DNA of 64,000 nt from NCBI GenBank assembly GCA_965205335.1, contig OZ242164.1, forward strand, positions 552,713 to 616,712, read 5' to 3'. This document shows, piece after piece, positions 3,461 to 64,000 of the stretch. The translations under genes were made by a program, and so were the position numbers. Each line of letters starts with the position of its first letter. The first letter of the stretch is position 1. This stretch comes from Candidatus Woesearchaeota archaeon. Lineage in GTDB: Archaea; Nanobdellota; Nanobdellia; Woesearchaeales; UBA583. The notes below the pieces were generated by a model that ran no database searches, had not been told where the DNA came from, and was given only the letters and a program-made list of their open reading frames with translations.

Positions 3461-6310
3461 ATGAGTGGAAATTTTTTTGATAAGAGTATTTTAGAATCAT
3501 CATACGAAGAAGAATATGAGAGTATAAAAGATTACGATAAACTAACTTACTATTTGAAAAAAACTGAGAACCTATATAGTTTTCATTGCGAAATAAATGG
3601 ACAAAGACTAAACCAAGGAGAACTAAAAGCTCTCATCAAACTAAACGAAAACAAAAAAATCATGAACGAATCAGATGCAGAATTACTAACATACATAATC
3701 CATAAAATAAGTCCAATTCAGACAATATACAAACTATCCACAGACATAGAAGTAATCATCAAATACTTAGCCAACTGTAAATTTAAATTCTTCCTTAACG
3801 ACAAAGAATCAAAAGTTGTATCAAAAAACAAAAAACTTGACCTAAACCTCTACATTGGCAAAGATTCAAACATAAAACTAGACATACTAAACAAAGGTGG
3901 ATTTTTTTGGGGAAACTACGAAGCCTTCTACGTTGAAGATCAAACAATCATGCCAATCTCAGATGAACTACCCCTTAAACTTTACAAAGAAATAATTGAT
4001 GGGAATAACAAATTCTCAATAGAAACATTCTTCCAGATAAAAAATTCAATAATTCCAAAACTAAAAAAACTGCATAACTTAAAAATCTCGGATGAAATTG
4101 AAAAACTATCAAGCCTTTCAATAGAAGAAAAAATTGCCCCCTACATTTTAGAAATTGGAAAATCCGTTCACTTCATCACCTTTCACCTAAAATACAAAAT
4201 AGGCGATGAACTCTTTAACATTGAAGATTACAAATACCTTGAAACAATTAACTGGATGAACAAACCCAATCTAATCAAAATAACAAAAGAAGACTCCGGA
4301 CTTATCAAATACATCTCTGACGAAAAACTCTCAGAGCACACAATTGATACAATATTTGAAGGAGTTAGAATTAAATACAGCAAAAACCAAAAATCACCCT
4401 TCTCAATAATGGTTCCTATCTCAAGTCTTGAAACAGTTGTCAAAAAAGTTCTGCCAAAAGCTCACAAGACATTTCAAATTGAATACAAAGAAGGACAGAA
4501 ACTAACTCTGTCCAACTCAAATGTAAAATTTGAAATTGACACGAACCTAAAAAAAAACCTTAACTTATTTGAATTTAAAGTTCGCTTTAAAATTGGAGAC
4601 GAATTCTTTGACATTGAATTCTTAAAAGAAATTATGTCCAAAAACAGAAAACACGTTCAACTAAAAGACGGTAGAACTGTAAACATTGAAAACTTTCGTG
4701 ACATTAACAAATGGATTGAATTTTTAAATAAATTTGAATTTAAAAGAACAGAAAAAACTTACAAAGCCCAAAGCAGCAGTGCCCTTGAACTTAACGAATT
4801 TCTAAAAAATATTGAAGGAACAAAAGTTACATCAAACGAAGATTACAAGAATATGATTACAGAAGTAAAAGATAGGACTCCAATTGAGCCCATCAAAATC
4901 CCAAAGCAAGTTTCCAATGTCCTTCGTGACTATCAAATAGATGGAGTTTACTGGATGTATTTTCTAAAAAAATATGGCTTCGGAGGAATCTTAGCTGATG
5001 AAATGGGCCTTGGAAAAACCATTCAGGCTCTAACTGTTTTAAGTATGAACAATAACAATGGGACTCATTTAGTCGTATGTCCTAAATCTCTCATCTACAA
5101 CTGGGAAAATGAAATCAAAAAATTCCTTCCTGATATGAAAGTTTTAATTATTGATAAAGACCAAGAAAAAAGAAAAAAACTAATTAAAACTGCAAACAAC
5201 TATGACATAGTTATAACCTCATACTCTATTCTGCAAAGAGACTACTCTTATTACGACGAAAATAAAATCATATTTAATTATCAAATTTTAGATGAAGCTC
5301 ATTACATTAAAAACATAAAAACTCTCTCATCAAAAGCTGTTAGAGTAATTAATGCTAAAAGAAAAGTATTACTAACAGGAACCCCTCTTGAGAACAACTT
5401 AGATGAATTATTTGGAACATTTGAATTAATTATGCCAGGATATTTAGGAACTAAGACTGAATTCAGAAATAATTTTGTTGCAAAAATCGAAAGAAACAAC
5501 CAGATAGCCCTTGACATCTTGCAGGCAAAAATCAGACCTTTCATTTTGCGTAGAACAAAAAATGAGGTTTTAAAAGAATTACCTGACAAGCAAGAACAAA
5601 TAGTATATAACGAGATGACTAATAAACAGATAGGAGTATACAATGAAATCCTTAATCGTGTTAAAAGCGAAGTTAACATACTAATTGAAAAACAGGGATT
5701 TGAAAAATCAAGAATTCAGGTTTTATCTGCTCTTTTGAAACTAAGACAAGTATGCAACCATCCTTCCCTTGTTGATAAATCCTTTTCAGGTGAAGTTGGT
5801 ATCTCTGGAAAACATGAACAATTTAAAGAACTTCTCTCAGAAGTTATTGCATCAGGTGAGAAAGTCCTCGTATTTAGTCAATTCACATCAATGCTTAACA
5901 TCTTTGAAAAAGACTTAAATGAAAGAGATATTACTTTCTCCCGATTAGATGGTTCTACAAAAAATCGCCAAGAAGTCGTTGATGAATTTAACAATAACAA
6001 ATCAATCTCAGTTTTTTTAATTTCACTTAAAGCAGGAGGAGTTGGACTGAATTTGACCTCTGCAAGTGTTGTATTCTTATATGACCCTTGGTGGAATCCT
6101 ATGGTAGAACAACAAGCAGTTGATCGTGCTCACAGAATAGGACAAAAGAAAAAAGTTAACATCTACAAATTCATTACAAAAAATTCAATTGAAGAGAAAA
6201 TTCTCAAACTGCAAGAAAGAAAAGGAAACCTATTTGAGAACTTAGTTGTAGAAGATTCGGGATTTATGAAAAGACTTGAATGGGAAGATTTAATGGAACT
6301 ATTTGATTAA
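3461..6310 (+). CDS. SNF2/Swi2-family ATPase-helicase with a roughly 470-aa uncharacterised N-terminal domain
   Basis: Helicase motifs GILADEMGLGKT (I), DEAH (II, ILDEAHYIKN), LLTGTPLENNLDEL (III), QAVDRAHRIGQ (VI). Confidence 0.85.
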   Translation: MSGNFFDKSILESSYEEEYESIKDYDKLTYYLKKTENLYSFHCEINGQRLNQGELKALIKLNENKKIMNESDAELLTYIIHKISPIQTIYKLSTDIEVIIKYLANCKFKFFLNDKESKVVSKNKKLDLNLYIGKDSNIKLDILNKGGFFWGNYEAFYVEDQTIMPISDELPLKLYKEIIDGNNKFSIETFFQIKNSIIPKLKKLHNLKISDEIEKLSSLSIEEKIAPYILEIGKSVHFITFHLKYKIGDELFNIEDYKYLETINWMNKPNLIKITKEDSGLIKYISDEKLSEHTIDTIFEGVRIKYSKNQKSPFSIMVPISSLETVVKKVLPKAHKTFQIEYKEGQKLTLSNSNVKFEIDTNLKKNLNLFEFKVRFKIGDEFFDIEFLKEIMSKNRKHVQLKDGRTVNIENFRDINKWIEFLNKFEFKRTEKTYKAQSSSALELNEFLKNIEGTKVTSNEDYKNMITEVKDRTPIEPIKIPKQVSNVLRDYQIDGVYWMYFLKKYGFGGILADEMGLGKTIQALTVLSMNNNNGTHLVVCPKSLIYNWENEIKKFLPDMKVLIIDKDQEKRKKLIKTANNYDIVITSYSILQRDYSYYDENKIIFNYQILDEAHYIKNIKTLSSKAVRVINAKRKVLLTGTPLENNLDELFGTFELIMPGYLGTKTEFRNNFVAKIERNNQIALDILQAKIRPFILRRTKNEVLKELPDKQEQIVYNEMTNKQIGVYNEILNRVKSEVNILIEKQGFEKSRIQVLSALLKLRQVCNHPSLVDKSFSGEVGISGKHEQFKELLSEVIASGEKVLVFSQFTSMLNIFEKDLNERDITFSRLDGSTKNRQEVVDEFNNNKSISVFLISLKAGGVGLNLTSASVVFLYDPWWNPMVEQQAVDRAHRIGQKKKVNIYKFITKNSIEEKILKLQERKGNLFENLVVEDSGFMKRLEWEDLMELFD

Positions 6311-16571: not shown

Positions 16572-19500
16572 ATGGCTCAATATATTTGTAAACTAAAATT
16601 AAACTATATGGAACTAGTCAAAGATGATACAATTAAAAAAATCATACTAGTTTTAGTTCTTCTTTTTGGAGTATCCTTAGTTCTCGGAGCAACAAGCAAT
16701 GGCGAGCCAGATTTTTATGATGATCCCTATGCACCTAACTCTTATGATGATCCCTACTCTTCTGGATCTTATAATGATCCCCATACACCTAACTATGATG
16801 ATCCCTACACTCCTGGATTTTATGATGATCCCTATGCACCTGGCTATTATGATCCCCATACACCTAACCATGATGATCCCTATGCACCTGGCTATTATGA
16901 TCCCCATACACCTAACTATGATGATCCCTACACTCCTGGATTTTATGATGATCCCTATACACCTGGATTTTATGATAATAATTATGATGCTGTGGATGGA
17001 GTTTGCGGTGTAGATGTTGATACATGTAAAAACGGGACCTACAAGAGCCTTCTGGATAATTCAACCCATTATTTATGGAATTGCATAGGATTAAATGGTG
17101 GAAGTGATGCATCTTGCAGTAAACCAAAATCTTCTACTGATGGAGTATGTGATAATTCTGGAAGAAATAGATGTTCAAGTGGAAGTTCTAATGATGGAGC
17201 ACATGCAGATACAACTTGTGAGCATAGATGGCGTTGTGATGGAGTACGTGGAGGAAGTAATTCGGGTATGTGCAGTATAGTCAAACCAAGCCGAATTGTA
17301 AATGGAGTATGTGATAATTCTGGAAGGAATAGATGTTCAAGTGGAGATGATAATGATGAGGCTGTCACAGATACAACCACTCACTATAGATGGCGTTGTG
17401 GTGGAAGTTGTGGTGGAAGTAATTCAGGAACGTGTAGTTATCCTATACCACCATCTTCTATTGATGGTGTTTGTGGTTCAAGTGTTAATAGTTGTATTGA
17501 TGGAACTTTGAGTGATATTGGAGATAATTCAACCCATTATTTATGGAATTGCATAGGATTAAATGGTGGAAGTGATGCATCTTGCAGTAAACCAAAATCT
17601 TCTACTGATGGAGTATGTGATAATTCTGGAAGAAATAGATGTTCAAGTGGAAGTTCTAATGATGGAGCACATGCAGATACAACTTGTGAGCATAGATGGC
17701 GTTGTGATGGAGTACGTGGAGGAAGTAATTCGGGTATGTGCAGTATAGTCAAACCAAGCCGAATTGTAAATGGAGTATGTGATAATTCTGGAAGGAATAG
17801 ATGTTCAAGTGGAGATGATAATGATGAGGCTGTCACAGATACAACCACTCACTATAGATGGCGTTGTGGTGGAAGTTGTGGTGGAAGTAATTCAGGAACG
17901 TGTAGTTATCCTATACCACCATCTTCTATTGATGGTGTTTGTGGTTCAAGTGTTAATAGTTGTATTGATGGAACTTTGAGTGATATTGGAGATAATTCAA
18001 CCCATTATTTATGGAATTGCATAGGGTTAAATGGCGGAAGTAACGCTTCATGTAATGAAAGAATATCATTAAATGAAGATGATAATACCTCAAATAGAAA
18101 TAATTCTAATAATAATTCAGAAAAGATTAAATTAAATATTATTTTTGGCTCATATTATGATAAATTATACCGTCCTTCTCAAGAACATATTCAACTTGAA
18201 TTTTCACAGAGAAATCTCTTTATGAATTGCAATGAGTTTGAAATCGATATTACACTAAATAATGAGTTTAACTACAAATATGATTTTCAAAAAAGAGTGA
18301 TTCCTGTGCATCTTGGTATTGGTCTTTTCGACATAACACTTGATGAACTCAGAAATGAATCAGACACTGTTAAGTATAACGCAGTTCTATCTGGAAAATG
18401 TGAAAACAATCCTAACAAAAGAACAACACTCTTATCGCAAGAAGGAACATTTCAAATACCTCCTTTTGATGTTACCTATGATCGGCTTACTAATAAGATA
18501 AGAATTAAACTCCCTGGATATACCCATTTAGAAAATTATGATATATATATGTTTAATATTACATTACACAATAAATTTAGTCTCACGTCTATATTTGAAC
18601 AACTTTCAAATAGAAAAGAATCATTTATAGAATTTAGTGTTGAACCTTCATTATTAGATAAACTTAGAGAAGAACCAGACTTAGTTAAATACAATGCAAT
18701 TCTTTATGGAGGAAAAACTGTAGGAGGGGATGAAAACCATTTGAATTTCAGCAAAATACTTGGTTCACAAGAAGGACTGTTTCTAATCCAGTTTCTAACC
18801 CTGTATGGTGAACAGTATGGTGAAGAAGGATGTGGGGGATACTGTGATATAGGACCTTTTCTATGGATGGGTGATGGAGATCACTCAAAATATGACTTAT
18901 TTTTTGTATTTGAGGGCAAAACAGTTGAGGAAGTAGAGGACCAATTAGATAGACATTTTAGAAACGGAGATTATTCTTTGTTTAAAACAAACCCTTTTAT
19001 TGAACAAGAAGATAAGTTTAATATTTATTATGCAATAATTTCAGATGCATATGATTATAAACTGAATAAGGAATGTAAATGGGGAACTTATCCCAGACCA
19101 GATTCTCATTTCAACAACATCTTCGCTCAATATGATTGGATAGATGGAGAAGTTCATTTTAGTCAGAACCCATCTGTATGGCCTTATGCTAAGTATGGTA
19201 AGTATATTCAGATGTCTTATGCTTGTTACAGATCTGTTTGGGGTGTCAATTGGGATAAAACTTTTGTCCATGAATTTGGGCATCTGTTCGGCTCTTTGAG
19301 AGATGAATACATTTATCCTTCTTTATCAGATAATAATGCTCGTTCACATGACAGAAAAAATTGTCTTTACATAAGGGAACTAGTGGGTAAAAAATGTGAA
19401 AATGGATGTGAACTAAAAGGAACTCACAGATGGGAACATATTCCAAACTTTGATGGAGAAGTACTCTCTGGATGTAAACATCCTCTTCTTTTTAGGGGTG

Positions 19501-19616
19501 AATTTAATAGTATCATGAGAAACGAATTGCAATTTTATAAAGACACTTGGGCAGGTGGTTGGGGTCCAGTTAATGAGTATTATCTAAGAGAAAAGTTAGA
19601 GGAGAATTATAGTTAA
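16572..19616 (+). CDS. Large surface protein: signal anchor, Tyr/Pro/Asp-rich 9-aa repeats, duplicated Cys-rich modules and a C-terminal M64-like (IgA-peptidase type) zinc metalloprotease domain
   Basis: N-terminal hydrophobic segment; (DDPYxPGxY) x about 12; modules DGVCG...THYLWNCIGLNGGS...C; C-terminal VHEFGHLFGSLRDEY matches the M64 HEFGHxFxxLxDEY signature. Confidence 0.7.
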   Translation: MAQYICKLKLNYMELVKDDTIKKIILVLVLLFGVSLVLGATSNGEPDFYDDPYAPNSYDDPYSSGSYNDPHTPNYDDPYTPGFYDDPYAPGYYDPHTPNHDDPYAPGYYDPHTPNYDDPYTPGFYDDPYTPGFYDNNYDAVDGVCGVDVDTCKNGTYKSLLDNSTHYLWNCIGLNGGSDASCSKPKSSTDGVCDNSGRNRCSSGSSNDGAHADTTCEHRWRCDGVRGGSNSGMCSIVKPSRIVNGVCDNSGRNRCSSGDDNDEAVTDTTTHYRWRCGGSCGGSNSGTCSYPIPPSSIDGVCGSSVNSCIDGTLSDIGDNSTHYLWNCIGLNGGSDASCSKPKSSTDGVCDNSGRNRCSSGSSNDGAHADTTCEHRWRCDGVRGGSNSGMCSIVKPSRIVNGVCDNSGRNRCSSGDDNDEAVTDTTTHYRWRCGGSCGGSNSGTCSYPIPPSSIDGVCGSSVNSCIDGTLSDIGDNSTHYLWNCIGLNGGSNASCNERISLNEDDNTSNRNNSNNNSEKIKLNIIFGSYYDKLYRPSQEHIQLEFSQRNLFMNCNEFEIDITLNNEFNYKYDFQKRVIPVHLGIGLFDITLDELRNESDTVKYNAVLSGKCENNPNKRTTLLSQEGTFQIPPFDVTYDRLTNKIRIKLPGYTHLENYDIYMFNITLHNKFSLTSIFEQLSNRKESFIEFSVEPSLLDKLREEPDLVKYNAILYGGKTVGGDENHLNFSKILGSQEGLFLIQFLTLYGEQYGEEGCGGYCDIGPFLWMGDGDHSKYDLFFVFEGKTVEEVEDQLDRHFRNGDYSLFKTNPFIEQEDKFNIYYAIISDAYDYKLNKECKWGTYPRPDSHFNNIFAQYDWIDGEVHFSQNPSVWPYAKYGKYIQMSYACYRSVWGVNWDKTFVHEFGHLFGSLRDEYIYPSLSDNNARSHDRKNCLYIRELVGKKCENGCELKGTHRWEHIPNFDGEVLSGCKHPLLFRGEFNSIMRNELQFYKDTWAGGWGPVNEYYLREKLEENYS
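16720..16985. repeat. Imperfect 27-nt tandem repeats encoding DDPYxPGxY
   Basis: gatgatccctaYRcMcctggMtWttat units repeated in frame inside the large ORF. Confidence 0.6.
17055..17990. repeat. Two identical 468-bp tandem copies (17055-17522 and 17523-17990) with a diverged third start
   Basis: Sequence beginning ataattcaacccattatttatggaattgcatag recurs at 17055, 17523 and 17991; the ORF-track pairs 17069-17380/17537-17848 etc. are identical. Confidence 0.85.
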
Positions 19617-25721: not shown

Positions 25722-25778
25722 AGTGGTAAGTATTAGTTTCTATGTGAGTGTTAGAATTAGGGACATAATTTTGAATTC

Positions 25779-25906
25779 GGCTCTGTCCGAAAATTCAAGA
25801 GAACTTAAAATATTGTATCAGTAAAGCAATTTTTGACAAATTATTTTTTTCTTTGACTGAATATAGTTAGCATAGATTTTGGAAAAACCAATTTCCGGAC
25901 AGATGG
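25779..25906. mobile_element. MITE copy A (about 128 bp, TIR GGCTCTGTCCGAAAATT family)
   Basis: Left end ggctctgtccgaaaatt, right end ccggacagatgg (degenerate); flanked by GAATTC on both sides. Confidence 0.6.
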
Positions 25907-25914
25907 ACGAATTC

Positions 25915-26046
25915 GTGGCTCTGTCCGGAAAGTCAAGAGAGCATAAAATATTATATAAATAAAACAATTTTTGACAAATAATTTCTTTCTTTGATTGAAC
26001 ATAACTAGCATAGATTTTGAAGAAAACAATTTCAGGACAGAGCCAC
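25915..26046. mobile_element. MITE copy B (about 132 bp), tandem to copy A
   Basis: Left TIR GTGGCTCTGTCCG, right TIR CGGACAGAGCCAC, flanking GAATTC duplication (25909-25914 and 26047-26052). Confidence 0.6.
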
Positions 26047-51981: not shown

Positions 51982-52081
51982 ACGAAAAGATATTTTTATT
52001 AATTTATAAACTCTCCTATATCCGAACTAAGAATATAATATTGGGGCTTTACTTTCTAACCTCACACATAAATTCTATTAG

Positions 52082-52210
52082 TGGCTCTGTCCGAAAATTC
52101 AAGAGAACTTAAAATATTGTATTAATAAAACAATTTTTGACAAATAATTTTTTTCTTTGATTGAAGATAGTTAGCATAGATTTTGGAAAAAACAATTTTC
52201 GGACAGAGCC
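52082..52210. mobile_element. MITE copy C (TIR GGCTCTGTCCGAAAATT family)
   Basis: tggctctgtccgaaaattc ... aattttcggacagagcc, flanked by CTATTAG at 52075-52081 and 52211-52217. Confidence 0.65.
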
Positions 52211-53394: not shown

Positions 53395-53511
53395 GGCTTT
53401 GTACGAAAAGTAACAATTGCTTTAAAAAAGATTAAAACATTATATTATATATTGATAATTTTAATTATTTCTAATTTATTGTTAATTCTTAATGACTTTT
53501 CGTACAAAGCC
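53395..53511. mobile_element. MITE (117 bp) derived from the IS at 36400-38062
   Basis: TIRs GGCTTTGTACGAAAAGT and ACTTTTCGTACAAAGCC, 9-bp target duplication TCCACTTGG (53386-53394 and 53512-53520), AT-rich non-coding core. Confidence 0.6.
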
Positions 53512-56258: not shown

Positions 56259-56350
56259 ATTTATCTGAAATAAAACACCAATTATAAAGTTTTAGTTCAA
56301 AAATCAAATACAATATTTATAGAAATACACTTACTAAGAGTTCATATACT

Positions 56351-56400
56351 ATTCATTAAATTGAAGATAGTTAGCATAGATTTTGGAAAAAACAATTTTC
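56351..56400. repeat. Truncated right half of the GGCTCTGTCCG-family MITE (solo end)
   Basis: ttgaagatagttagcatagattttggaaaaaacaattttcggacagagcc is identical to the right 50 bp of copy C; the left half is absent. Confidence 0.55.
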
Positions 56401-56454
56401 GGACAGAGCCTTTTAAATAAAAGTTTTATAAATCAAAGTTTCTTAGTTTTACTT

Positions 56455-56922
56455 ATGACAGATTTAAAAGAAAAAATTATTGAAGTTCTAAGAGATGTAT
56501 ATGACCCAGAAATTCCCGTTAATGTGTACGATTTAGGTTTAATCTATGAAATAAATATAAAAGAGGATTCATCTGTTCACATCCTAATGACTTTAACATC
56601 CCCTACATGTCCAACAGCAGAATATATTCAGACTATGATTGAGGATGCAATTAAAACAATTTCTGATGTCAAGGATGTAGAAATTGAACTAACATTTACG
56701 CCTGCATGGACTCCTGATAGAGTTTCTATGGATGCGAAAGAAGAATTAGGACTTGGAGATGTTCAATCACAGGACAATTTAGCAGTTCAGTCAGTATACG
56801 GAGATGATAGTGTTTGTTCAAAGTGCAATATTTCAAGTGATAAGAAAATTCTTCTAAAAGCAGTTTGTGACAATAAAGAGATTTTGATTTGTAATGATTG
56901 TCTTGTTAAACAAGAGAAGTAA
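56455..56922 (+). CDS. DUF59 (MIP18/SufT-like Fe-S assembly) domain protein with a C-terminal Cys-rich extension
   Basis: IEVLRDVYDPEIPVNVYDLGLIYEI...LTSPTCP is the DUF59 signature. C-terminal CSKCN...CDNKEILICNDC. Start at Met 56455, 21 nt from TATA. Confidence 0.6.
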   Translation: MTDLKEKIIEVLRDVYDPEIPVNVYDLGLIYEINIKEDSSVHILMTLTSPTCPTAEYIQTMIEDAIKTISDVKDVEIELTFTPAWTPDRVSMDAKEELGLGDVQSQDNLAVQSVYGDDSVCSKCNISSDKKILLKAVCDNKEILICNDCLVKQEK

Positions 56923-56989
56923 CTTATTTAGGAACGATAAATTTATAAATATCAAAGCATATATATTATTATCTACTTTAATACTAAAA

Positions 56990-57577
56990 ATGAATATTGA
57001 CATAACTAAAATTAATATTGGTGAAATATCTCAGGTAATAAAAAGAGGAATATCGTCATATTATTTATGTGAGGAAGGTAATATTGAGAATTTTGTAAAT
57101 ATTAAAGATATTCAAAATGGAGTTATAAATATGGAATTCGTTGAAAGAGTTAAGATTAAAATTACAAATTCAACTAAAAATTCACAATTAGAAGTTGGAG
57201 ATTTGGTTTTAGCAGTCAAAGGCTCTAATTATAAGTGTGGTTTAGTTGATGAAAATTCAGAAGGTTCATATATTAGCAGTAATTTAATTGCAATTAAACT
57301 TAAACATCAATACAATTCTGAACTCGTTTTGGAATATTTGAACAGTTCTTTTGGTCAAAAGGAATTAAATATAAGAGCAAGTGGCAACTTTCAAAAATCA
57401 TTATCTATTAAGTCCATCTTAGATATTGAGATACCTATTTTTCCTAAAGATAAGGAAAATGTATTAGTTAAGTTTTTTGAGTTAAGTAAGAAGTTAGTTA
57501 AATTAAATATGCAAGAGTTAAAGTTAAGAAGCAAGTTAAATAATGAGATAATTGGAGAGGTTTTAAAAAATGATTGA
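56990..57577 (+). CDS. hsdS: Short (single-TRD) Type I restriction-modification specificity subunit HsdS
   Basis: N-terminal INIGEISQVIKRG start of a TRD and C-terminal conserved coiled region IPIFPKDKENVLVKFFELSKKLVKLNMQELKLRSKLNNEII; overlaps hsdM by 8 nt. Confidence 0.55.
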   Translation: MNIDITKINIGEISQVIKRGISSYYLCEEGNIENFVNIKDIQNGVINMEFVERVKIKITNSTKNSQLEVGDLVLAVKGSNYKCGLVDENSEGSYISSNLIAIKLKHQYNSELVLEYLNSSFGQKELNIRASGNFQKSLSIKSILDIEIPIFPKDKENVLVKFFELSKKLVKLNMQELKLRSKLNNEIIGEVLKND

Positions 57578-59069
57578 AAATACACTAACAGATGAACAGT
57601 TAAAAAGCAAAGTATGGCAGGCGGCAGATATATTAAGAGGTTCTATTGATTCATCAGATTATAAGAACTATATTTTCGGATTTTTATTCTTAAAAAGGTT
57701 GTCTGATGTTTTTGAAGAGAAAGTGCAGAAGATTTTAGATGAAGGAGAGAGTAAAGGTGTTGCATATGATCCTGATGAACACAAATTCTTTGTTCCCGAA
57801 AAAGCAAGATGGAAAAATATTAAGAAACAGCCTTCACAAATTGGTGATTATCTAAACAAAGTTGCAGCAGAGTTGGAGGATGAAAACAAATCATTGGACG
57901 GAGTTCTCAAAACTATTGATTTTAACAGCGAGCAGTTAGGAGATGTAAAGCAGAGAGATTCTACTTTATTGCAGTTAGTTCAGCACTTTTCAGCAATTCC
58001 TTTGAGAAATTCTGATATACACAGAGCTGACGCTTTAGGAGATGTATATGAGTATTTAATTGAGAAATTCGCTGATGATTCCGGAAAGAAAGGTGGAGAG
58101 TTTTATACACCAAAGGAAGTCGTTAAATTGATAGTTGAATTGTTAGACCCAAAAGAAGGAATGAGAATTTGCGACCCCACCTGCGGTTCTGGTGGTATGC
58201 TAATTGAAAGTGCTCATCATATTAAGGAAAGCAAAGGTAACGAACATAATATTTCTTTGTTTGGACAGGAAAAGAATGTCGGAACTTGGAGTATATGCAA
58301 GATGAATATGCTTTTGCATAATCTTCCCGATGCAGATATTAGAAAAGGAGATACTATTCGTGAGCCTAAATTATTATCTGACGGGCAGTTAGTATTGTTT
58401 GATAGAGTAATCGCCAATCCTCCTTTCTCCTTGGACAGATGGGGTATTGAAACCGCTCAAAATGATGGCTTTGGAAGGTTCATTTATGGAATACCTCCCA
58501 AGTCCAAAGGGGACTTTGCGTTTATTGAGCATATGATTGCAACAACTAATCAGGATGGAATGGTTGGAGTTGTAGTTCCTCACGGAGTTTTATTTAGAGG
58601 AGCATCTGAAGGAAGAATAAGGACTAATTTTATTGAAAAAGATTTAATTGAGGCTGTTGTTGGATTGCCTTCAAATCTGTTTTATGGCACAGGCATTCCT
58701 GCCGCAATTTTAGTGTTTAACAAATCCAAGTCTGCAGACAGAAGAAATAAGGTATTGTTCATTGATTCATCGCAGAATTTTGAAAGCGGAAAAAATCAGA
58801 ATAAGTTAAGAAGCAGTGATATTTCTAAAATTGTTAATGCATTTAAGGATTATAAGACTATTGATAAGTATTCAAGAGTTGTAGAGATTAAAGAGATTAA
58901 AGAGAATGATTACAATTTGAATATTTCAAGATATGTTGATACAACGCCAGAGGAAGAGCCCATTGACATTAAGGCGACTATAAAGGAGTTGAATGATATT
59001 GAGAAAGAGAAAGCAGAAGTAGAAAAAGAGATGAACAAATATTTAGAAGAGTTGGGATTTAAGAGGTGA
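57570..59069 (+). CDS. hsdM: Type I restriction-modification DNA methyltransferase subunit HsdM (N6-adenine)
   Basis: HsdM_N region, GEFYTPKEVVKLIVELLDP, motif I DPTCGSGGMLI, motif IV NPPFS. Confidence 0.9.
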   Translation: MIENTLTDEQLKSKVWQAADILRGSIDSSDYKNYIFGFLFLKRLSDVFEEKVQKILDEGESKGVAYDPDEHKFFVPEKARWKNIKKQPSQIGDYLNKVAAELEDENKSLDGVLKTIDFNSEQLGDVKQRDSTLLQLVQHFSAIPLRNSDIHRADALGDVYEYLIEKFADDSGKKGGEFYTPKEVVKLIVELLDPKEGMRICDPTCGSGGMLIESAHHIKESKGNEHNISLFGQEKNVGTWSICKMNMLLHNLPDADIRKGDTIREPKLLSDGQLVLFDRVIANPPFSLDRWGIETAQNDGFGRFIYGIPPKSKGDFAFIEHMIATTNQDGMVGVVVPHGVLFRGASEGRIRTNFIEKDLIEAVVGLPSNLFYGTGIPAAILVFNKSKSADRRNKVLFIDSSQNFESGKNQNKLRSSDISKIVNAFKDYKTIDKYSRVVEIKEIKENDYNLNISRYVDTTPEEEPIDIKATIKELNDIEKEKAEVEKEMNKYLEELGFKR

Positions 59070-59073
59070 TAAT

Positions 59074-60417
59074 ATGAGAAAGAAAGATATTCTTAAATTA
59101 ATTGAAACTGGAGAAGGTTATAAATTGGAGTTTAAGGAGACTTTTAGTAGTTCTATCGGAAAGGAAGTTTGCGCTTTTGCAAATGCATCAGGAGGTAAGA
59201 TTATTCTGGGAGTTAGAGATGATAATACAATTAGAGGTTGCTCATTAAATAATTCAGAATTTTCACGAATACAAGATATTGCACGAAATATAGAACCTTC
59301 TTTTAATGTTAGCATTGAACAGGTTGATGATTTAGTTGTTATTGATGTTTCAGAGGGCAAAGAGAAACCTTATTCTGTTAATGGGCATTTTTATATTCGT
59401 CAGGGGGCAAACTCCCAGAAGTTAAGAAGAGACGAAGTAAGAGGTTTTTTTCAAAGAGAGAATTTAATCAGGTTTGATAATAAAGCAAATCCTGATTTTG
59501 ATATTAGAAATGATTTTGACAGGGAAAAATTTAAAGCATTTGTTCAGAAATTAGGAGTTGATAAATCATTACCACAGAAGAATTTGTTGCAGAATTTAGG
59601 TTTAGTAACCGATGGAAAATTAAATAATACAGGGGTTTTGTTTTTTTCGCATAGAATTTCAAAGTTCTTTCTTAATTCTGTTATTTGTTGCGTTTTGTAT
59701 GATGGCAGAACAAAGACAAAGATTTTAGACAAGAAAGAATATGATGGGGATTTTGTTTCAAACTTTAATGATGCTGTGCTTTTTGTTCTGAGAAACCTCA
59801 GAACTGAATTTGTCATTGAGAAGATTGAGCGGGAGGAAAAAGAAGAGATTCCAGAAAATGCTTTAAGGGAGTTGATTATTAATGCAATGGCACACAGGGA
59901 TTATTTTTCAGAAGGACGCATATTAATTGAGATTTTTTCAGATAATGTTAAAATATCAAATCCCGGCAGTTTGTTGTTTGATAAAAAAGATTTTGGGAAA
60001 AGGAGTCTTTCAAGAAATCCCTTAATTGTTGATATAGCCCACAGATTAAAATTTGTTGAGCGTTTAGGTTCAGGTATTGAGAGAGTCAGAGAGATTTTAA
60101 AAGACAGAGTTAAATTTGAGATAAGTTCAGATTGGTTTGAGGTTATAATTAAGAGAAGGCAGATAAGAATTATTGCAGAAGAAACAGAGAATTACAGAAA
60201 GAGTTCACCAAAAGTTCATCAAAAAAGTTCACCAAAAATAATTGAGTTAATGAGAGAAAATCCTAATATAACAATAACAGAACTTTCCCTGATTATTGGA
60301 ATAACAGAGAGGGGAATAAAGAAGAATATTGCTAAATTAAAACAGGAAGGAATAATAAAAAGAGTTGGTTCATACAGGGCTGGTTATTGGAAAGTATTGG
60401 GGGATAATAAAAAATGA
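59074..60417 (+). CDS. AlbA_2 (divergent-AAA/Schlafen-like) plus HATPase_c_4 plus C-terminal wHTH protein embedded in the Type I R-M operon
   Basis: ETGEGYKLEFKETFSSSIGKEVCAFANASGGKIILGV (AlbA_2); ELIINAMAHRDYFSEGRILIEIFSDNVKISNPGSL (HATPase_c_4); C-terminal HTH ITITELSLIIGITERGIKKNIAKLKQEGII. Confidence 0.7.
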   Translation: MRKKDILKLIETGEGYKLEFKETFSSSIGKEVCAFANASGGKIILGVRDDNTIRGCSLNNSEFSRIQDIARNIEPSFNVSIEQVDDLVVIDVSEGKEKPYSVNGHFYIRQGANSQKLRRDEVRGFFQRENLIRFDNKANPDFDIRNDFDREKFKAFVQKLGVDKSLPQKNLLQNLGLVTDGKLNNTGVLFFSHRISKFFLNSVICCVLYDGRTKTKILDKKEYDGDFVSNFNDAVLFVLRNLRTEFVIEKIEREEKEEIPENALRELIINAMAHRDYFSEGRILIEIFSDNVKISNPGSLLFDKKDFGKRSLSRNPLIVDIAHRLKFVERLGSGIERVREILKDRVKFEISSDWFEVIIKRRQIRIIAEETENYRKSSPKVHQKSSPKIIELMRENPNITITELSLIIGITERGIKKNIAKLKQEGIIKRVGSYRAGYWKVLGDNKK

Positions 60418-61202
60418 TAGAGTACATAAAGTTATTTTTTGGGAAGCATTGGAAATTGGTTTTGGTTTTTGTAATTGGAGTTATCATTACTTTCAGTATA
60501 ATGTCTCATTTTCATCAAAAAGATATTGACATAAAGGATAGTACCATAGAAATAAAAGATAGCACTATAGAAAATTTGAAAGAACAACATCAGAAAGATA
60601 TAGATATAAAAGATAGCACCATAAAAAGTCTGGAAGTTCAGAATAATAATTTATCTTATCAAATTGGATATGTAAAAGAAGAAAGTTTAGAATGTAAAAT
60701 TGAATTCGGAGACTTTGATTTATCAAATAACAACATAATAAATTTTTCCACTCAAAAAGATTTAAATTTCAGTTGTATAGAGAAAGATGTTGTAATTGAT
60801 AAACTAATTGATAAAACTAATTCACAAGATGAAAGTTTGAGGATTTCAGAAAATAAGAATCAAGTTCTTGAAGAAGAAAATAACCAATTATCAAACGAGA
60901 ACTCAGATTTAAAAAGTAAAATTGGAATTGAGAAGAATTTCTTAAATAGTACAATCACGATTAATAATCTTAAAACATATGAAGCAGAAAATGGAAAATT
61001 CGCAATTACTGTAACAGGTATATTTAATGGGCAAACATCATTGAAAATTAATGGCAAGGACTTTAATAACTTAGGCAGAGGAACTCAAATAAATTTCACT
61101 TACAAAAACCAAGAATACATTTTGAGAATAAACGAGATTTATGGTGAGTCAGCATATCATAATCAAAATTACATAATTATTAGGATTATTAAAAATGACT
61201 AA
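60414..61202 (+). CDS. Hypothetical protein: N-terminal TM, internal near-identical QKDIDIKDSTI repeats, coiled-coil, beta-rich C-terminus
   Basis: TM WKLVLVFVIGVIITFSI; repeat HQKDIDIKDSTIE / HQKDIDIKDSTIK at 60520-60625; 4-nt overlap with the upstream gene. Confidence 0.4.
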   Translation: MIEYIKLFFGKHWKLVLVFVIGVIITFSIMSHFHQKDIDIKDSTIEIKDSTIENLKEQHQKDIDIKDSTIKSLEVQNNNLSYQIGYVKEESLECKIEFGDFDLSNNNIINFSTQKDLNFSCIEKDVVIDKLIDKTNSQDESLRISENKNQVLEEENNQLSNENSDLKSKIGIEKNFLNSTITINNLKTYEAENGKFAITVTGIFNGQTSLKINGKDFNNLGRGTQINFTYKNQEYILRINEIYGESAYHNQNYIIIRIIKND

Positions 61203-61254
61203 AACAAATGAAAACACTATTCCAAACTGTTGGCAAAAAGCAAAATCAAGATAA
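61195..61254 (+). pseudogene. Truncated duplicate of the hsdS 5' end (19 codons then stop)
   Basis: atgactaaaacaaatgaaaacactattccaaactgttggcaa... is about 75% identical to the start of the full hsdS at 63096 (atgactcaaacaaatgaaaacactatcccagaagattggcaa...). It encodes MTKTNENTIPNCWQKAKSR* versus MTQTNENTIPEDWQEVKLNE. Confidence 0.5.
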
Positions 61255-61262
61255 AAGAGAAA

Positions 61263-62354
61263 ATGGCAAGCACAACAAATAAACTGCAAACTAAGGATTT
61301 GATAAGATTTAAGCATATGTTTAAATTATTAGACATCTTTAGTTTTGTAATTACTAATTTTATTTTTTTTATAATTATTCTTTACTTTTACGATTTGAAT
61401 ATAAATCCCTTGCATCTTGCATTCTTGATAAACCTTTTAATTTTTATCATGATTTTAATCCTCAATTTTATCTTGCTAAAACCAGAACATATCTTGTTAT
61501 GGAAAAATTCTAAAAAGTATTTCGGTTTTATTCCATCATTAAATAAATTAGAAAGAAAAAACAGAAAATTTTTAAGCAGTTTCCATATTATCACATTGTT
61601 AATAATTATCACTAGAACTCTTTTCTTTGAAATCTTAAGAAATTTTTTTATAATTACAATAATTTGGAGTTCTATCCTATTGCTATTGTACTTTTTGGGA
61701 ATTTATGTAATAAATCAAAATATAGGATATGAAGCCTTCATATATCTAATCACTGCAATTGGGATTTTTTCTGGAATATTCCAATTTTATTTTAAAGATT
61801 ATAAAAACGAAGAGAAAAACAGAGTTCTTTTAATTATTCAAAATTATTTGAAAGAGAAAATTAAATTGGTTTCACAAGAAGAATTCTTAGAATATCTTAG
61901 TGAGAAAAACTCAAAATTGCACAACACTTTCAAAGATAAATGTAGAGATAATGTCGCTTATAATCAGAATAGAAACAATACTCTTTATCTTTCATTTCCC
62001 AATTATAAAAACTTTAATATTGTGATGAAAGAAATGGAAAATGGCGATAAAGAGGAATTTACTAATCATTTAAACAATTTTTTTGAAGAAAGATTTAATG
62101 AGGTTAAGGGAGACTTAGAAAAAGATTTTAAAACTGAGGAACTTATGGAATTAAGAGTACGTATCCTCACAATAATAACATTTTTAGATGACGCATTAGT
62201 TACTTTTCTAAATACAGAATTCAACTTGACAAAAAATCAGGAGAAAAACGAGAAATATGAGGACTATTTAAGCACTTTTATTACAGAAATATATGAGTGC
62301 CTCTTTGATTATTTCTTACTTGGAGAAAACACAAATAAAGAGGAGAAAAAATAA
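61263..62354 (+). CDS. Hypothetical membrane protein (4 N-terminal TM helices plus a roughly 190-aa cytoplasmic Lys/Glu-rich domain)
   Basis: Start MASTTNKL placed after the hsdS remnant; TM helices in residues 30-190. Confidence 0.45.
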   Translation: MASTTNKLQTKDLIRFKHMFKLLDIFSFVITNFIFFIIILYFYDLNINPLHLAFLINLLIFIMILILNFILLKPEHILLWKNSKKYFGFIPSLNKLERKNRKFLSSFHIITLLIIITRTLFFEILRNFFIITIIWSSILLLLYFLGIYVINQNIGYEAFIYLITAIGIFSGIFQFYFKDYKNEEKNRVLLIIQNYLKEKIKLVSQEEFLEYLSEKNSKLHNTFKDKCRDNVAYNQNRNNTLYLSFPNYKNFNIVMKEMENGDKEEFTNHLNNFFEERFNEVKGDLEKDFKTEELMELRVRILTIITFLDDALVTFLNTEFNLTKNQEKNEKYEDYLSTFITEIYECLFDYFLLGENTNKEEKK

Positions 62355-62355
62355 A

Positions 62356-63099
62356 ATGAGTTCTGAGAATAAATTGAAGGAGAAGAAGAAGAAGGAATGT
62401 GGAAATTATTATGATTGGTTATGTGGTGATGAAGATTTAGAAAGGGTAAAATTCTCTGAAAATATATCTGAAGAAGATATTGAAAAAATCAAATTTTTAT
62501 TTAGAAACTGTTGTTATAATAAAAACAGATTTGAGGAAGAATTTAATAGAGATGAAGGCTGGAAGTTTGACAAAGGATTTTTTAAACATAACAATCTTAA
62601 ACTTAAAGCACAAATTCCATTTACAATGTGGGCAGATATTCACGTTTTTGAGTTTAATTCTTTCTTGTTTAATGTTTCAAGATTAATAAATTTTTTAGTT
62701 AAAGTAGAATTGGAAATGGAAAGCATAGATACTAAGAGAACTCCCACAATTAATGAACTCTTAAATGAGAAAAGGAAAGCGAAATTCAAATCATTCAAAC
62801 TTTATGATTTTTTTAAGGAAGAAAATGAGAAATGGGTAAGATTTCTAAACAATTTGAGGAATGAAATTACTCATAAGGAAATAGAGAGAAAATTAGAAGG
62901 TTATTACAAATTAGATGTTAGGATGGACAAGAAAAGTGATGAATTGGTAGTTAAGCAAGAAAAAATCTTTGAAGTAAAGAAATACAACATAGACAATTTG
63001 AAAGTTTATATAAATATGAGTTTGAATAATCTTACATATTTAATAAATGAATTTATGAACAGGATAGAAGTAAATTATCAAATCAAAAATAAGAAATGA
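62356..63099 (+). CDS. Hypothetical soluble protein with an Abi_2/HEPN-like RNxxxH motif
   Basis: FLNNLRNEITHKEIERKL matches the Rx4-6H HEPN motif in its AbiD/AbiF-like R-N-x3-H form. Translationally coupled to the upstream 4-TM gene (stop, one nt, then ATG) and to hsdS (ATGA). Confidence 0.35.
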   Translation: MSSENKLKEKKKKECGNYYDWLCGDEDLERVKFSENISEEDIEKIKFLFRNCCYNKNRFEEEFNRDEGWKFDKGFFKHNNLKLKAQIPFTMWADIHVFEFNSFLFNVSRLINFLVKVELEMESIDTKRTPTINELLNEKRKAKFKSFKLYDFFKEENEKWVRFLNNLRNEITHKEIERKLEGYYKLDVRMDKKSDELVVKQEKIFEVKKYNIDNLKVYINMSLNNLTYLINEFMNRIEVNYQIKNKK

Positions 63100-64000
63100 C
63101 TCAAACAAATGAAAACACTATCCCAGAAGATTGGCAAGAAGTTAAATTGAACGAAATAATAAAGATTAAAAAGGGGAAAACCCAAAGTCCTCTTTTTGAT
63201 AATAAGGTTGATAGTTCATTACCTCATATTTTAGTTGAATCTTTTGATGGAAATTATAAAAGATTTACAACTTCAAAAAATGGAGTCTTATGTTCAAAAA
63301 ATGAAATATTAACTATCTGGGATGGTTCAAGATTTGGCTTAGTCGCAAAAAATTTAGAAGGGTATGTAGGTTCAACTATTGGAATCTTAACACCCATTAA
63401 TAACTTAAATAAAGACTATCTTTACTATTTTTTAGAGGAAAATTATAATAATATTAGAAAGACCACAGCTGGAAGTGGAATTCCGCATATAGATAAAAAT
63501 TACTTATTAAGTTTAAAGATTTGTTTGTTTTCCATAAAAAAACAGCAAAAGATAGCGTCTATATTAACAAGTGTTGATGATTTAATAGAACAAACACAAA
63601 GAACACTTGAAAACAATCAAGTTTTAAAAAAAGGATTAATGAATGAATTATTAACAAAAGGAATAGGACACAAAGAATTTAAAAAAATAAAATTAGGATT
63701 AAAGGAAATTGAAACACCCATTGATTGGGGAATTATGAATTTCGGAGAATTTACAAAAATGATTTCTAAAAAAAATACAGATAAACAAATAACTAATGTT
63801 GTTTCTGTGACTAAATATGATGGTATTGTTGATTCATTAGAATATTTTAAGAAACAAGTTTATAGTAAAGAACTAGGAGTATATAAAATAATTAAAAAAT
63901 ATCAATTTGCTTATGCAACAATTCATCTTGAAGAGGGTTCAATAGGTTATTTAGATATTTATGATGAAGCAGTTTTAAGTCCTATGTATACTGTTTTTGA
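63096..64000 (+). CDS. hsdS: Type I restriction-modification specificity subunit HsdS (5' partial in window, continues beyond 64000)
   Basis: IPEDWQEVKLNEIIKIKKGKTQS (TRD1 start) and central conserved region SIKKQQKIASILTSVDDLIEQTQRTLENNQVLKKGLMNELLTKG, followed by TRD2. Confidence 0.7.
   Translation, partial: MTQTNENTIPEDWQEVKLNEIIKIKKGKTQSPLFDNKVDSSLPHILVESFDGNYKRFTTSKNGVLCSKNEILTIWDGSRFGLVAKNLEGYVGSTIGILTPINNLNKDYLYYFLEENYNNIRKTTAGSGIPHIDKNYLLSLKICLFSIKKQQKIASILTSVDDLIEQTQRTLENNQVLKKGLMNELLTKGIGHKEFKKIKLGLKEIETPIDWGIMNFGEFTKMISKKNTDKQITNVVSVTKYDGIVDSLEYFKKQVYSKELGVYKIIKKYQFAYATIHLEEGSIGYLDIYDEAVLSPMYTVF

Follow-up and report, generated by a model that had tools for sequence, protein, structure and literature searches.

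A truncated homologue of the hsdS start beside two embedded genes in a type I restriction-modification operon of a Woesearchaeota archaeon

Two copies of the hsdS start in a packed operon

The DNA analysed here, referred to as the window, is a 64,000-nt stretch from a Candidatus Woesearchaeota archaeon (GenBank assembly GCA_965205335.1, contig OZ242164.1, positions 552,713 to 616,712 of the forward strand); positions given without a locus name are counted from its first base. From 56894 to the window end, all genes are on the + strand and belong to one tightly packed type I restriction-modification (R-M) operon. The order is a half-size hsdS-like gene (half-hsdS), hsdM, a gene with AlbA_2 and helix-turn-helix (HTH) domains, an orphan gene denoted p262, a short remnant of an hsdS start, an orphan membrane-protein gene denoted TM363, a gene for a protein with an RNxxxH motif, and hsdS. 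Successive distances between the genes are -8, +4, -4, +60, +1 and -4 nt, the 60 nt being the remnant, which is the sole real gap in an otherwise gap-free operon. This remnant is the subject of our analysis, together with the TM363-RNxxxH block that separates it from the intact hsdS gene.

The remnant and the 5´ end of hsdS form a direct repeat. Copy 1 (61188-61246, + strand) and copy 2 (63089-63147, + strand) are identical at 48 of 59 positions (81%) in the best ungapped register, and a repeat finder, independent of the alignment, recovered two copies in direct orientation with a spacing of 1901 nt and no inverted copy. Within copy 1 begins a 19-codon open reading frame (ORF; 61195-61254) with the translation MTKTNENTIPNCWQKAKSR followed by a stop, while the hsdS start is translated as MTQTNENTIPEDWQEVKLNE. 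At the DNA level the sequence at 61195 begins ATGACTAAAACAAATGAAAACACTATTCCAAACTGTTGGCAAAAAGCAAAAT and its counterpart at 63096 begins ATGACTCAAACAAATGAAAACACTATCCCAGAAGATTGGCAAGAAGTTAAAT; aligned start to start (61195-61254 against 63096-63155), 46 of 60 bases are identical (77%), and the longest exact run is 19 nt. The initial annotation, which had described a 60-nt ORF as a roughly 75% copy of the hsdS start, was thus accurate on this point.

That annotation had also raised the possibility of a generic AT-rich start context, which was checked here. When the hsdS 59-mer was slid without gaps over both strands of the 64-kb window, it matched 48 of 59 positions at the remnant and at most 34 of 59 elsewhere. 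The weaker 3´ tail of the repeat is likewise above composition-based chance, with 15 of 22 bases identical after the first 30 nt (p = 1.5e-4). On these two results, an AT-rich start context or chance similarity is ruled out, and the short ORF and the hsdS 5´ end are genuinely homologous. Mismatches are unevenly spread along the repeat (2 of 30 positions, then 7 of 22; Fisher p = 0.027) and cluster after codon 10. Homology sets in essentially at the hsdS ATG and fades after about +52; the 7 nt upstream of the two ATGs are identical at five positions, which is uninformative in DNA of 31% GC, the value for the whole window. No RNA structure was predicted at the remnant (z = +1.0).

The p262 gene, with its TAA stop at 61200-61202, overlaps the remnant ATG by 8 nt (ATGACTAA) and not in the form ATGA, and the stop codon of the RNxxxH gene overlaps the hsdS ATG as ATGA at 63096-63099, so that the two copies of the hsdS start overlap, in a native-looking stop/start fashion, with different upstream genes. 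The TM363 ATG follows 8 nt past the stop of the remnant ORF. TM363 (61263-62354) and the RNxxxH gene (62356-63099) sit exactly between the two repeat copies; both this placement and the ATGA overlap had been noted before and are borne out by the coordinates. The block lies between hsdM and hsdS and is co-directional with them, which is the arrangement on which 'guilt by embedding' is based. No transposase or integrase is encoded in the block. A transposon or integrative element with a target-site duplication was considered as the source of the repeat and rejected: the flanking repeat is 59 nt long, is 81% identical and matches a gene start instead.

The embedded genes and the core hsd genes

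The RNxxxH gene (62356-63099, + strand) encodes a 247-aa protein with the motif LRNEITH. The database gene model (P0001, 268 aa, 62293-63099) starts 63 nt (21 codons) earlier and overlaps TM363 by 62 nt. We prefer the 247-aa version because relatives align only from about its residue 17 and because a GAGGAG Shine-Dalgarno-like site lies 10 nt before the ATG at 62356; the P0001 start was probably set too early. A word-indexed protein search returned only the protein itself, and searches of plasmid and phage sequences with tblastn gave no match. In an exhaustive phmmer search, 16 relatives with identities of 25-48% emerged from 1.8 billion representatives; together with the query they make up a 17-member unnamed family. 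The main conserved block of the family alignment is W-x7-8-R-[NDQG]-x3-H: the R-x4-H is kept in 14 of 14 full-length members, and the residue after the arginine is N in 11 and D, Q or G in one each. The protein from the window has the polar residue after the arginine that characterises the Rx4-6H motif of HEPN domains.

Structure prediction with AlphaFold and the family alignment gave a confident model (predicted local distance difference test score, pLDDT, 89.6; predicted template modelling score, pTM, 0.85) of long helices with a beta-hairpin at 179-207, which is compatible with a divergent HEPN-like helical bundle. A single-sequence AlphaFold2 model (pLDDT 42) was unusable. Sub-threshold matches to Pfam HEPN families were seen among the relatives, to HEPN_Apea in 4 of 17 (best 5.6e-4) and to HepT-like, Swt1 and Cthe_2314 in one each. 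A profile search of the Protein Data Bank (PDB) produced chance-level matches only, and the protein itself has no HEPN match in Pfam, PADLOC, NCBIfam or PHROGs. Two results speak against a HEPN assignment: a Foldseek search against PDB and BFVD returned nothing significant, and no match reached a HEPN profile threshold. With the motif present, the fold compatible but non-specific and the profile threshold unreached, the protein probably carries a divergent HEPN domain. Among characterised proteins, we regard HEPN RNase toxins and abortive-infection (Abi) proteins as closest, namely HepT/SO_3166, LsoA/RnlA, Csm6/Csx1 and the Apea-like HEPN proteins of Pfam. A HEPN-MNT toxin-antitoxin pair was considered and rejected: the genes on either side are that of a membrane protein and hsdS, and the NTP_transf_2 domain of a minimal nucleotidyltransferase (MNT) antitoxin is present in neither.

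Relatives of the RNxxxH protein were found in 11 genomic contexts, one of them inside a type I locus. At that locus (L082/L083), the homologue lies directly after hsdS, in the order hsdM, four small genes, hsdS, homologue, a gene for a 154-aa transmembrane (TM) protein, NYN and hsdR; no flanking repeats surround the homologue in L082. Elsewhere, the family is found beside SIR2_2, Mrr_cat and DNA methyltransferases, and several contexts are integrase islands. A homologue adjoins SIR2_2 in L084, is near Mrr_cat, a 23S_rRNA_IVP gene and an integrase in L085, shares an island with an integrase and N6_N4 methyltransferases in L087, is part of an integrase/Prim-Pol element in L089-L091 and is near an integrase in L094. 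In L086, the homologue (P0008) stands beside a 490-aa protein that carries an RNDLVH motif of its own; the gene for this protein (4624-6096 of that locus) is just upstream of P0008 and has the C-terminal sequence LREIRNDLVHG, giving two HEPN-motif genes in tandem. In L096, the homologue is preceded by a 94-aa four-TM protein. The latter belongs to a small family of its own: the gene at 3443-3727 of L096 (94 aa), adjacent upstream of the homologue, encodes a product 42% identical to that of 6300-6599 of L082 (99 aa), where it is the first gene after hsdM. Taken together, these contexts indicate that the RNxxxH family is mobile and tied to defence islands, which supports the label 'accessory gene' and, by association only, the label 'defence'.

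The other two genes around the remnant have no described family. TM363 (+ strand) was annotated initially as a 4-TM gene; a hydropathy scan agrees on a membrane protein and places four to five hydrophobic segments in residues 22-172, with a C-terminal half that is soluble and probably helical. The gene p262 (60414-61202, + strand) encodes a 262-aa protein with one N-terminal TM segment and a coiled-coil-like region, and contains a 54-nt tandem repeat (60546-60649) of two copies that are 76-82% identical and encode (E/D)IKDSTI(E/K)(N/S)L(K/E) units. For both, no family was found in Pfam, PADLOC, NCBIfam or PHROGs, and a word-indexed search of 5.8 billion proteins returned only the self match. 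A scan of IMG/VR gave no match for p262 and two short low-complexity matches to the TM segments of TM363, which we take to be spurious.

The core hsd genes, all on the + strand, are readily recognised. hsdM (57570-59069) encodes a 499-aa type I methyltransferase (Pfam N6_Mtase 4.7e-112, HsdM_N 3.4e-34; PADLOC MTase_I 3e-168), and is overlapped by 8 nt by the half-hsdS gene (56894-57577), whose 227-aa product has one target-recognition domain (TRD), matches PADLOC Specificity_I at 3.1e-16 as well as NCBIfam MAD5 and type I S models, and scores below the Pfam threshold. The gene after hsdM (59074-60417) encodes an embedded accessory protein of 447 aa with Schlafen/AlbA_2, HATPase_c_4 and winged HTH domains according to Pfam. 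The first 301 codons of hsdS (63096-64000) are in the window, from which the gene runs off (Pfam Methylase_S 6.6e-20; PADLOC Specificity_I 1.8e-47); its residues 6-301 match positions 8-317 of the 418-position Specificity_I profile, so that TRD1, the central conserved region and the start of TRD2 are within the window. No hsdR is present upstream within the window, and in the related loci L002, L009 and L082 hsdR lies downstream of hsdS, which here corresponds to sequence beyond base 64000. The GC content at third codon positions (GC3) is 0.153 for hsdS (63096-63998), compared with 0.263 +/- 0.036 for the window ORFs, 0.265 for the TM363-RNxxxH block and 0.228 for p262. The very low value for hsdS hints at a separate history of this gene or of its TRDs.

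A few features elsewhere in the window deserve mention. An intergenic repeat of ~135 nt occurs at 25773-25906, 25911-26044 and 52077-52210, with its right half alone at ~56340-56440, so that one partial copy lies just left of the hsd operon; a related palindrome is found at 53395-53511. The element, in which 17-nt terminal inverted repeats (GGCTCTGTCCGAAAATT...AATTTTCGGACAGAGCC) flank a conserved core, is found upstream of several genes. Folding yields a long hairpin (z = -4.95), and Rfam matches are at chance level only; the element may resemble a miniature inverted-repeat transposable element (MITE) or be a structured leader. An ORF at 16572-19616 (1014 aa) has no family match, contains tandem 24/27-nt units with YDDPY-type motifs as well as 468-nt units that are 100% identical, and probably encodes a repetitive surface protein. 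A Snf2-family helicase of 949 aa is encoded at 3461-6310; its partial ZorD and DrmD matches are far below the family cut-offs, and it is possibly a second defence-related gene. Archaeal markers in the window are an aEF-2 equivalog (1025 bits) and an SMC equivalog; on the sequence evidence, the host is likely of DPANN type.

Related loci and the origin of the remnant

The closest relative of HsdM, at 70% identity, is encoded by a Pacearchaeota metagenome-assembled genome. For comparison we used the 80 closest HsdM loci from a genome contig scan. Among the closest of these (62-70% HsdM identity), half-hsdS and hsdM occur together wherever sequence upstream of hsdM is present: the arrangement is common to L002-L006 and L051, and the L001 and L009 sequences are truncated at hsdM or inside it. 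A half-hsdS overlapping hsdM and a full hsdS downstream would make two S genes per system in this HsdM clade. What follows hsdM differs from locus to locus, with genes of 179 and 155 aa in L001, 277 aa in L002, 250 aa plus an AlbA_2 gene in L003, 345 aa in L005, 192 aa in L006, and an AlbA_2 gene plus genes of 173 and 302 aa in L051. An hsdS gene then follows in L001, L002, L005 and L051; the L003 and L006 contigs end before this point. The AlbA_2 gene comes directly after hsdM in L051 and one gene later in L003. Because these HsdM relatives each carry different genes there, the hsdM-hsdS interval is, judged by its gene content, a turnover hotspot for accessory genes, as the initial interpretation presupposes. 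In the comparison with related hsd loci, which had been proposed as a check, interval content varies in each, no remnant was found in the HsdM relatives, and homologues of p262, TM363 or the RNxxxH protein are absent from the 80 loci.

The reading that we favour, with a probability of roughly 55%, is that a module swap at this variable hotspot left the 59-nt element behind as a recombination scar. It would consist of the first ~17 codons of an older or second hsdS allele, stranded between p262 and a 1.9-kb block that holds the membrane-protein gene and the HEPN-like gene. Under this model, a segment from another hsd locus would have brought TM363, the RNxxxH gene, its own hsdS start and probably the whole of the present hsdS, and would have displaced the body of the hsdS gene then resident downstream of p262. 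One crossover would have been homologous, downstream in hsdS or hsdR, and the other joint illegitimate, about 52 nt into the resident hsdS and 16 nt before TM363 begins. The resident start codon would thereby have been left stranded as the 19-codon ORF, its overlap with the p262 stop intact, while the incoming hsdS would have retained its native ATGA overlap with the RNxxxH gene. Both homology-facilitated illegitimate recombination (PMC3240628) and module displacement that leaves orphan fragments (PMC5361080) are documented.

Three features of the repeat lead us to two different hsdS alleles joined by recombination. The boundary of homology is the start codon, and the two copies overlap the stops of different upstream genes in a native manner. 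In addition, the differences concentrate after codon 10, the point at which the short conserved N-terminus of HsdS proteins gives way to a variable TRD. The mismatch pattern thus appears to fit two hsdS alleles, each with its own neighbour, better than duplication in place. We consider it very improbable that the start of hsdS was tandemly duplicated in situ, with the upstream copy decaying neutrally and the two genes arriving independently between the copies. That a single genome has both copies, directly oriented and with a spacing of 1901 nt, would suit such a history, but the boundary would match the start codon by chance, mismatches would not be expected to be non-uniform, 19% divergence without insertions or deletions is unlikely for a neutral relic in a 1.2-Mb genome of 31% GC, and two separate events at one spot are needed. 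There is next to no chance that the partial copy is a functional repeat, a silent recombination substrate of a phase-variable hsdS system: recombining duplicated or partial hsdS copies are well documented in type I loci (PMC7394358, PMC7383803), but here the repeat is direct rather than inverted, spans ~17 codons without a TRD, has no recombinase gene in its operon, and could by recombination between its copies only delete the block.

Internal deletion accounts for the same structure in another way. An ancestral order of p262-hsdS1-TM363-RNxxxH-hsdS2 could have lost the stretch between about codon 18 of hsdS1 and a point shortly before TM363, with no insertion into hsdS at all. The allele-like divergence of the copies suits such a deletion as well as it suits a swap, the half-hsdS at 56894 already gives the operon a further S gene, multiple hsdS genes in a locus are common (PMC7394358), and in L082/L083 a homologue of the RNxxxH gene lies directly downstream of an hsdS. 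Set against this, the right end of the deletion must fall neatly 16 nt before the TM363 start, no 3´ fragment of hsdS is left, and no related locus with two full hsdS genes flanking accessory genes was found. We regard a deletion as unlikely, though likelier than the other alternatives.

A swap of the opposite polarity, in which TM363-RNxxxH-hsdS is older and the p262 block, possibly with the AlbA_2 gene, arrived from another hsd locus and dragged along ~52 nt of its hsdS, strikes us as quite unlikely. The structure is symmetrical, so that the scar lies equally at the right edge of p262, and the p262 stop and the remnant ATG overlap in the manner of a native junction between p262 and hsdS. Moreover, p262 is as much an ORFan as TM363, and its GC3 (0.228) is no more host-like than that of the block (0.265). 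Nothing speaks directly against this polarity; the position of the AlbA_2 gene in L051 and L003 suggests that the left part of the operon is the older one, while being silent on p262 itself. Composition does not discriminate between these histories.

Several observations weigh against the swap that we favour. The pre-insertion state, a p262-hsdS junction free of the block, was not observed in the loci compared, among which there is no close relative. When the sequence upstream of 55 hsdS-like ORFs in the fetched loci was searched for a second copy of each ORF's first 59 nt, the maximum was 38 of 59, and these matches are internal TRD1/TRD2 repeats; the remnant is a one-off and no general signature of hsd loci. 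A search of metagenome contigs with a degenerate DNA pattern for MT[KQ]TNENTIP gave a single match, a mammalian LINE-1 ORF2 fragment, which was discarded. GC3 does not flag the block as foreign (0.265 against 0.263 for the window), and its difference from hsdS (0.153) argues mildly against a long shared history of block and hsdS. With respect to the block as a unit, no homology was found between TM363 and the neighbours of the RNxxxH homologues, so that the pairing of TM and HEPN proteins is not conserved, and the adjacency of a membrane protein to the homologue in 9 of 11 contexts is a marginal enrichment (p about 0.05). As to the discarded LINE-1 match, it lies in another frame at 2986-3282 of contig Ga0115855_100721 (L081), and stems from host DNA that was assembled with a metagenome and has no relation to hsdS.

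The overall pattern points to an hsdS-anchored exchange between hsd loci, not to insertion of a mobile element, and no recombinase gene was found in the operon or at 54-64 kb of the window. The initial annotation had proposed that a cassette was inserted into, or recombined with, the hsdS start and regenerated a start codon. Recombination at this place is supported by the remnant at the left edge of the block within a variable interval, but insertion with a regenerated start codon is not needed, and the joining of two alleles fits better. The further claim that the two genes move as a pair found no support, TM363 being an ORFan with no homologue beside the relatives of the RNxxxH gene. The term accessory defence cassette receives some support from the occurrence of the RNxxxH family in unrelated contexts including another type I locus; the defence role is drawn from context and motif only.

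As judged by motif, fold and context, the two embedded genes are candidate accessory defence genes, in which the RNxxxH protein would act as a HEPN-type RNase effector and TM363 would be its partner or a second effector. The scar itself is read as being without a dedicated function. With its start inside the p262 stop and its end 8 nt short of the TM363 ATG, the 19-codon ORF could possibly hand ribosomes along the operon, and the 19-nt exact core could possibly mediate precise excision of the block, restoring a p262-hsdS junction. A more ambitious proposal, which we regard as improbable, is that the RNxxxH protein and a membrane partner form an undescribed abortive-infection module confined to the type I R-M operons and the defence islands of archaea with small genomes, with hsdS translationally chained to it via ATGA and the hsdS start serving as a reusable docking sequence for swap-in and precise pop-out of the module.

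Comparison with known embedded systems

That accessory defence genes can lie embedded within type I R-M operons is established, as exemplified by the two-gene TgvAB system of Vibrio cholerae Vibrio pathogenicity island 2 (VPI-2) (PMC11411939) and by PrrC, other embedded systems and the 'guilt-by-embedding' candidates, which number in the hundreds (Payne et al., doi 10.1101/2024.01.29.577857). The latter study validated HEC-08, an embedded HEPN protein that depends for defence on the histidine of its Rx4-6H motif (doi 10.1101/2024.01.29.577857). Genes inside the type I loci of Campylobacter jejuni are attributed to Miller et al. 2005, as cited in PMC11411939. Like these embedded systems, the operon described here has unrelated extra genes between core hsd genes, in one operon and with a content that varies between loci, and like HEC-08 one of the embedded genes has a HEPN-type R-x4-H motif. 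Unlike the systems of TgvAB and Payne et al., this one belongs to a small-genome archaeal host, its embedded genes are of undescribed families and are known here from sequence alone, and a scar of the exchange is preserved, of a kind not described in those papers.

The way in which the scar would have arisen also has parallels. In the effector-immunity arrays of the V. cholerae type VI secretion system (T6SS) and the orphan arrays of Rhs and contact-dependent inhibition (CDI) loci (PMC5361080), a conserved segment serves as a homologous anchor, a module displaces part of the resident gene, and the old fragment is stranded. In those arrays the anchor is 5´ and 3´ fragments or immunity genes pile up downstream, whereas here a 5´ stub remains upstream, one round is visible and the mechanism is inferred. 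The locus resembles the multi-hsdS phase-variable systems (PMC7394358) in holding more than one hsdS-derived sequence; it differs from them in that the repeat is direct, the 59-nt stub is without a TRD, no recombinase is present and specificity cannot be changed.

The scar is thus of an ordinary kind in a known type of hotspot, and the locus adds an archaeal example of such embedding, in which the gene families are undescribed and the scar at the junction has been preserved. Its value lies in being a rare sequence-level footprint of the entry of accessory genes into the hsdM-hsdS gap. In parallel, a small, unnamed HEPN-like family recurs in the defence contexts of AT-rich, mostly uncultured lineages, in which, to our knowledge, few defence systems beyond R-M and CRISPR are known. 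While leaving current understanding unchanged, the scar and the RNxxxH family provide leads for catalogues of archaeal embedded defence genes.

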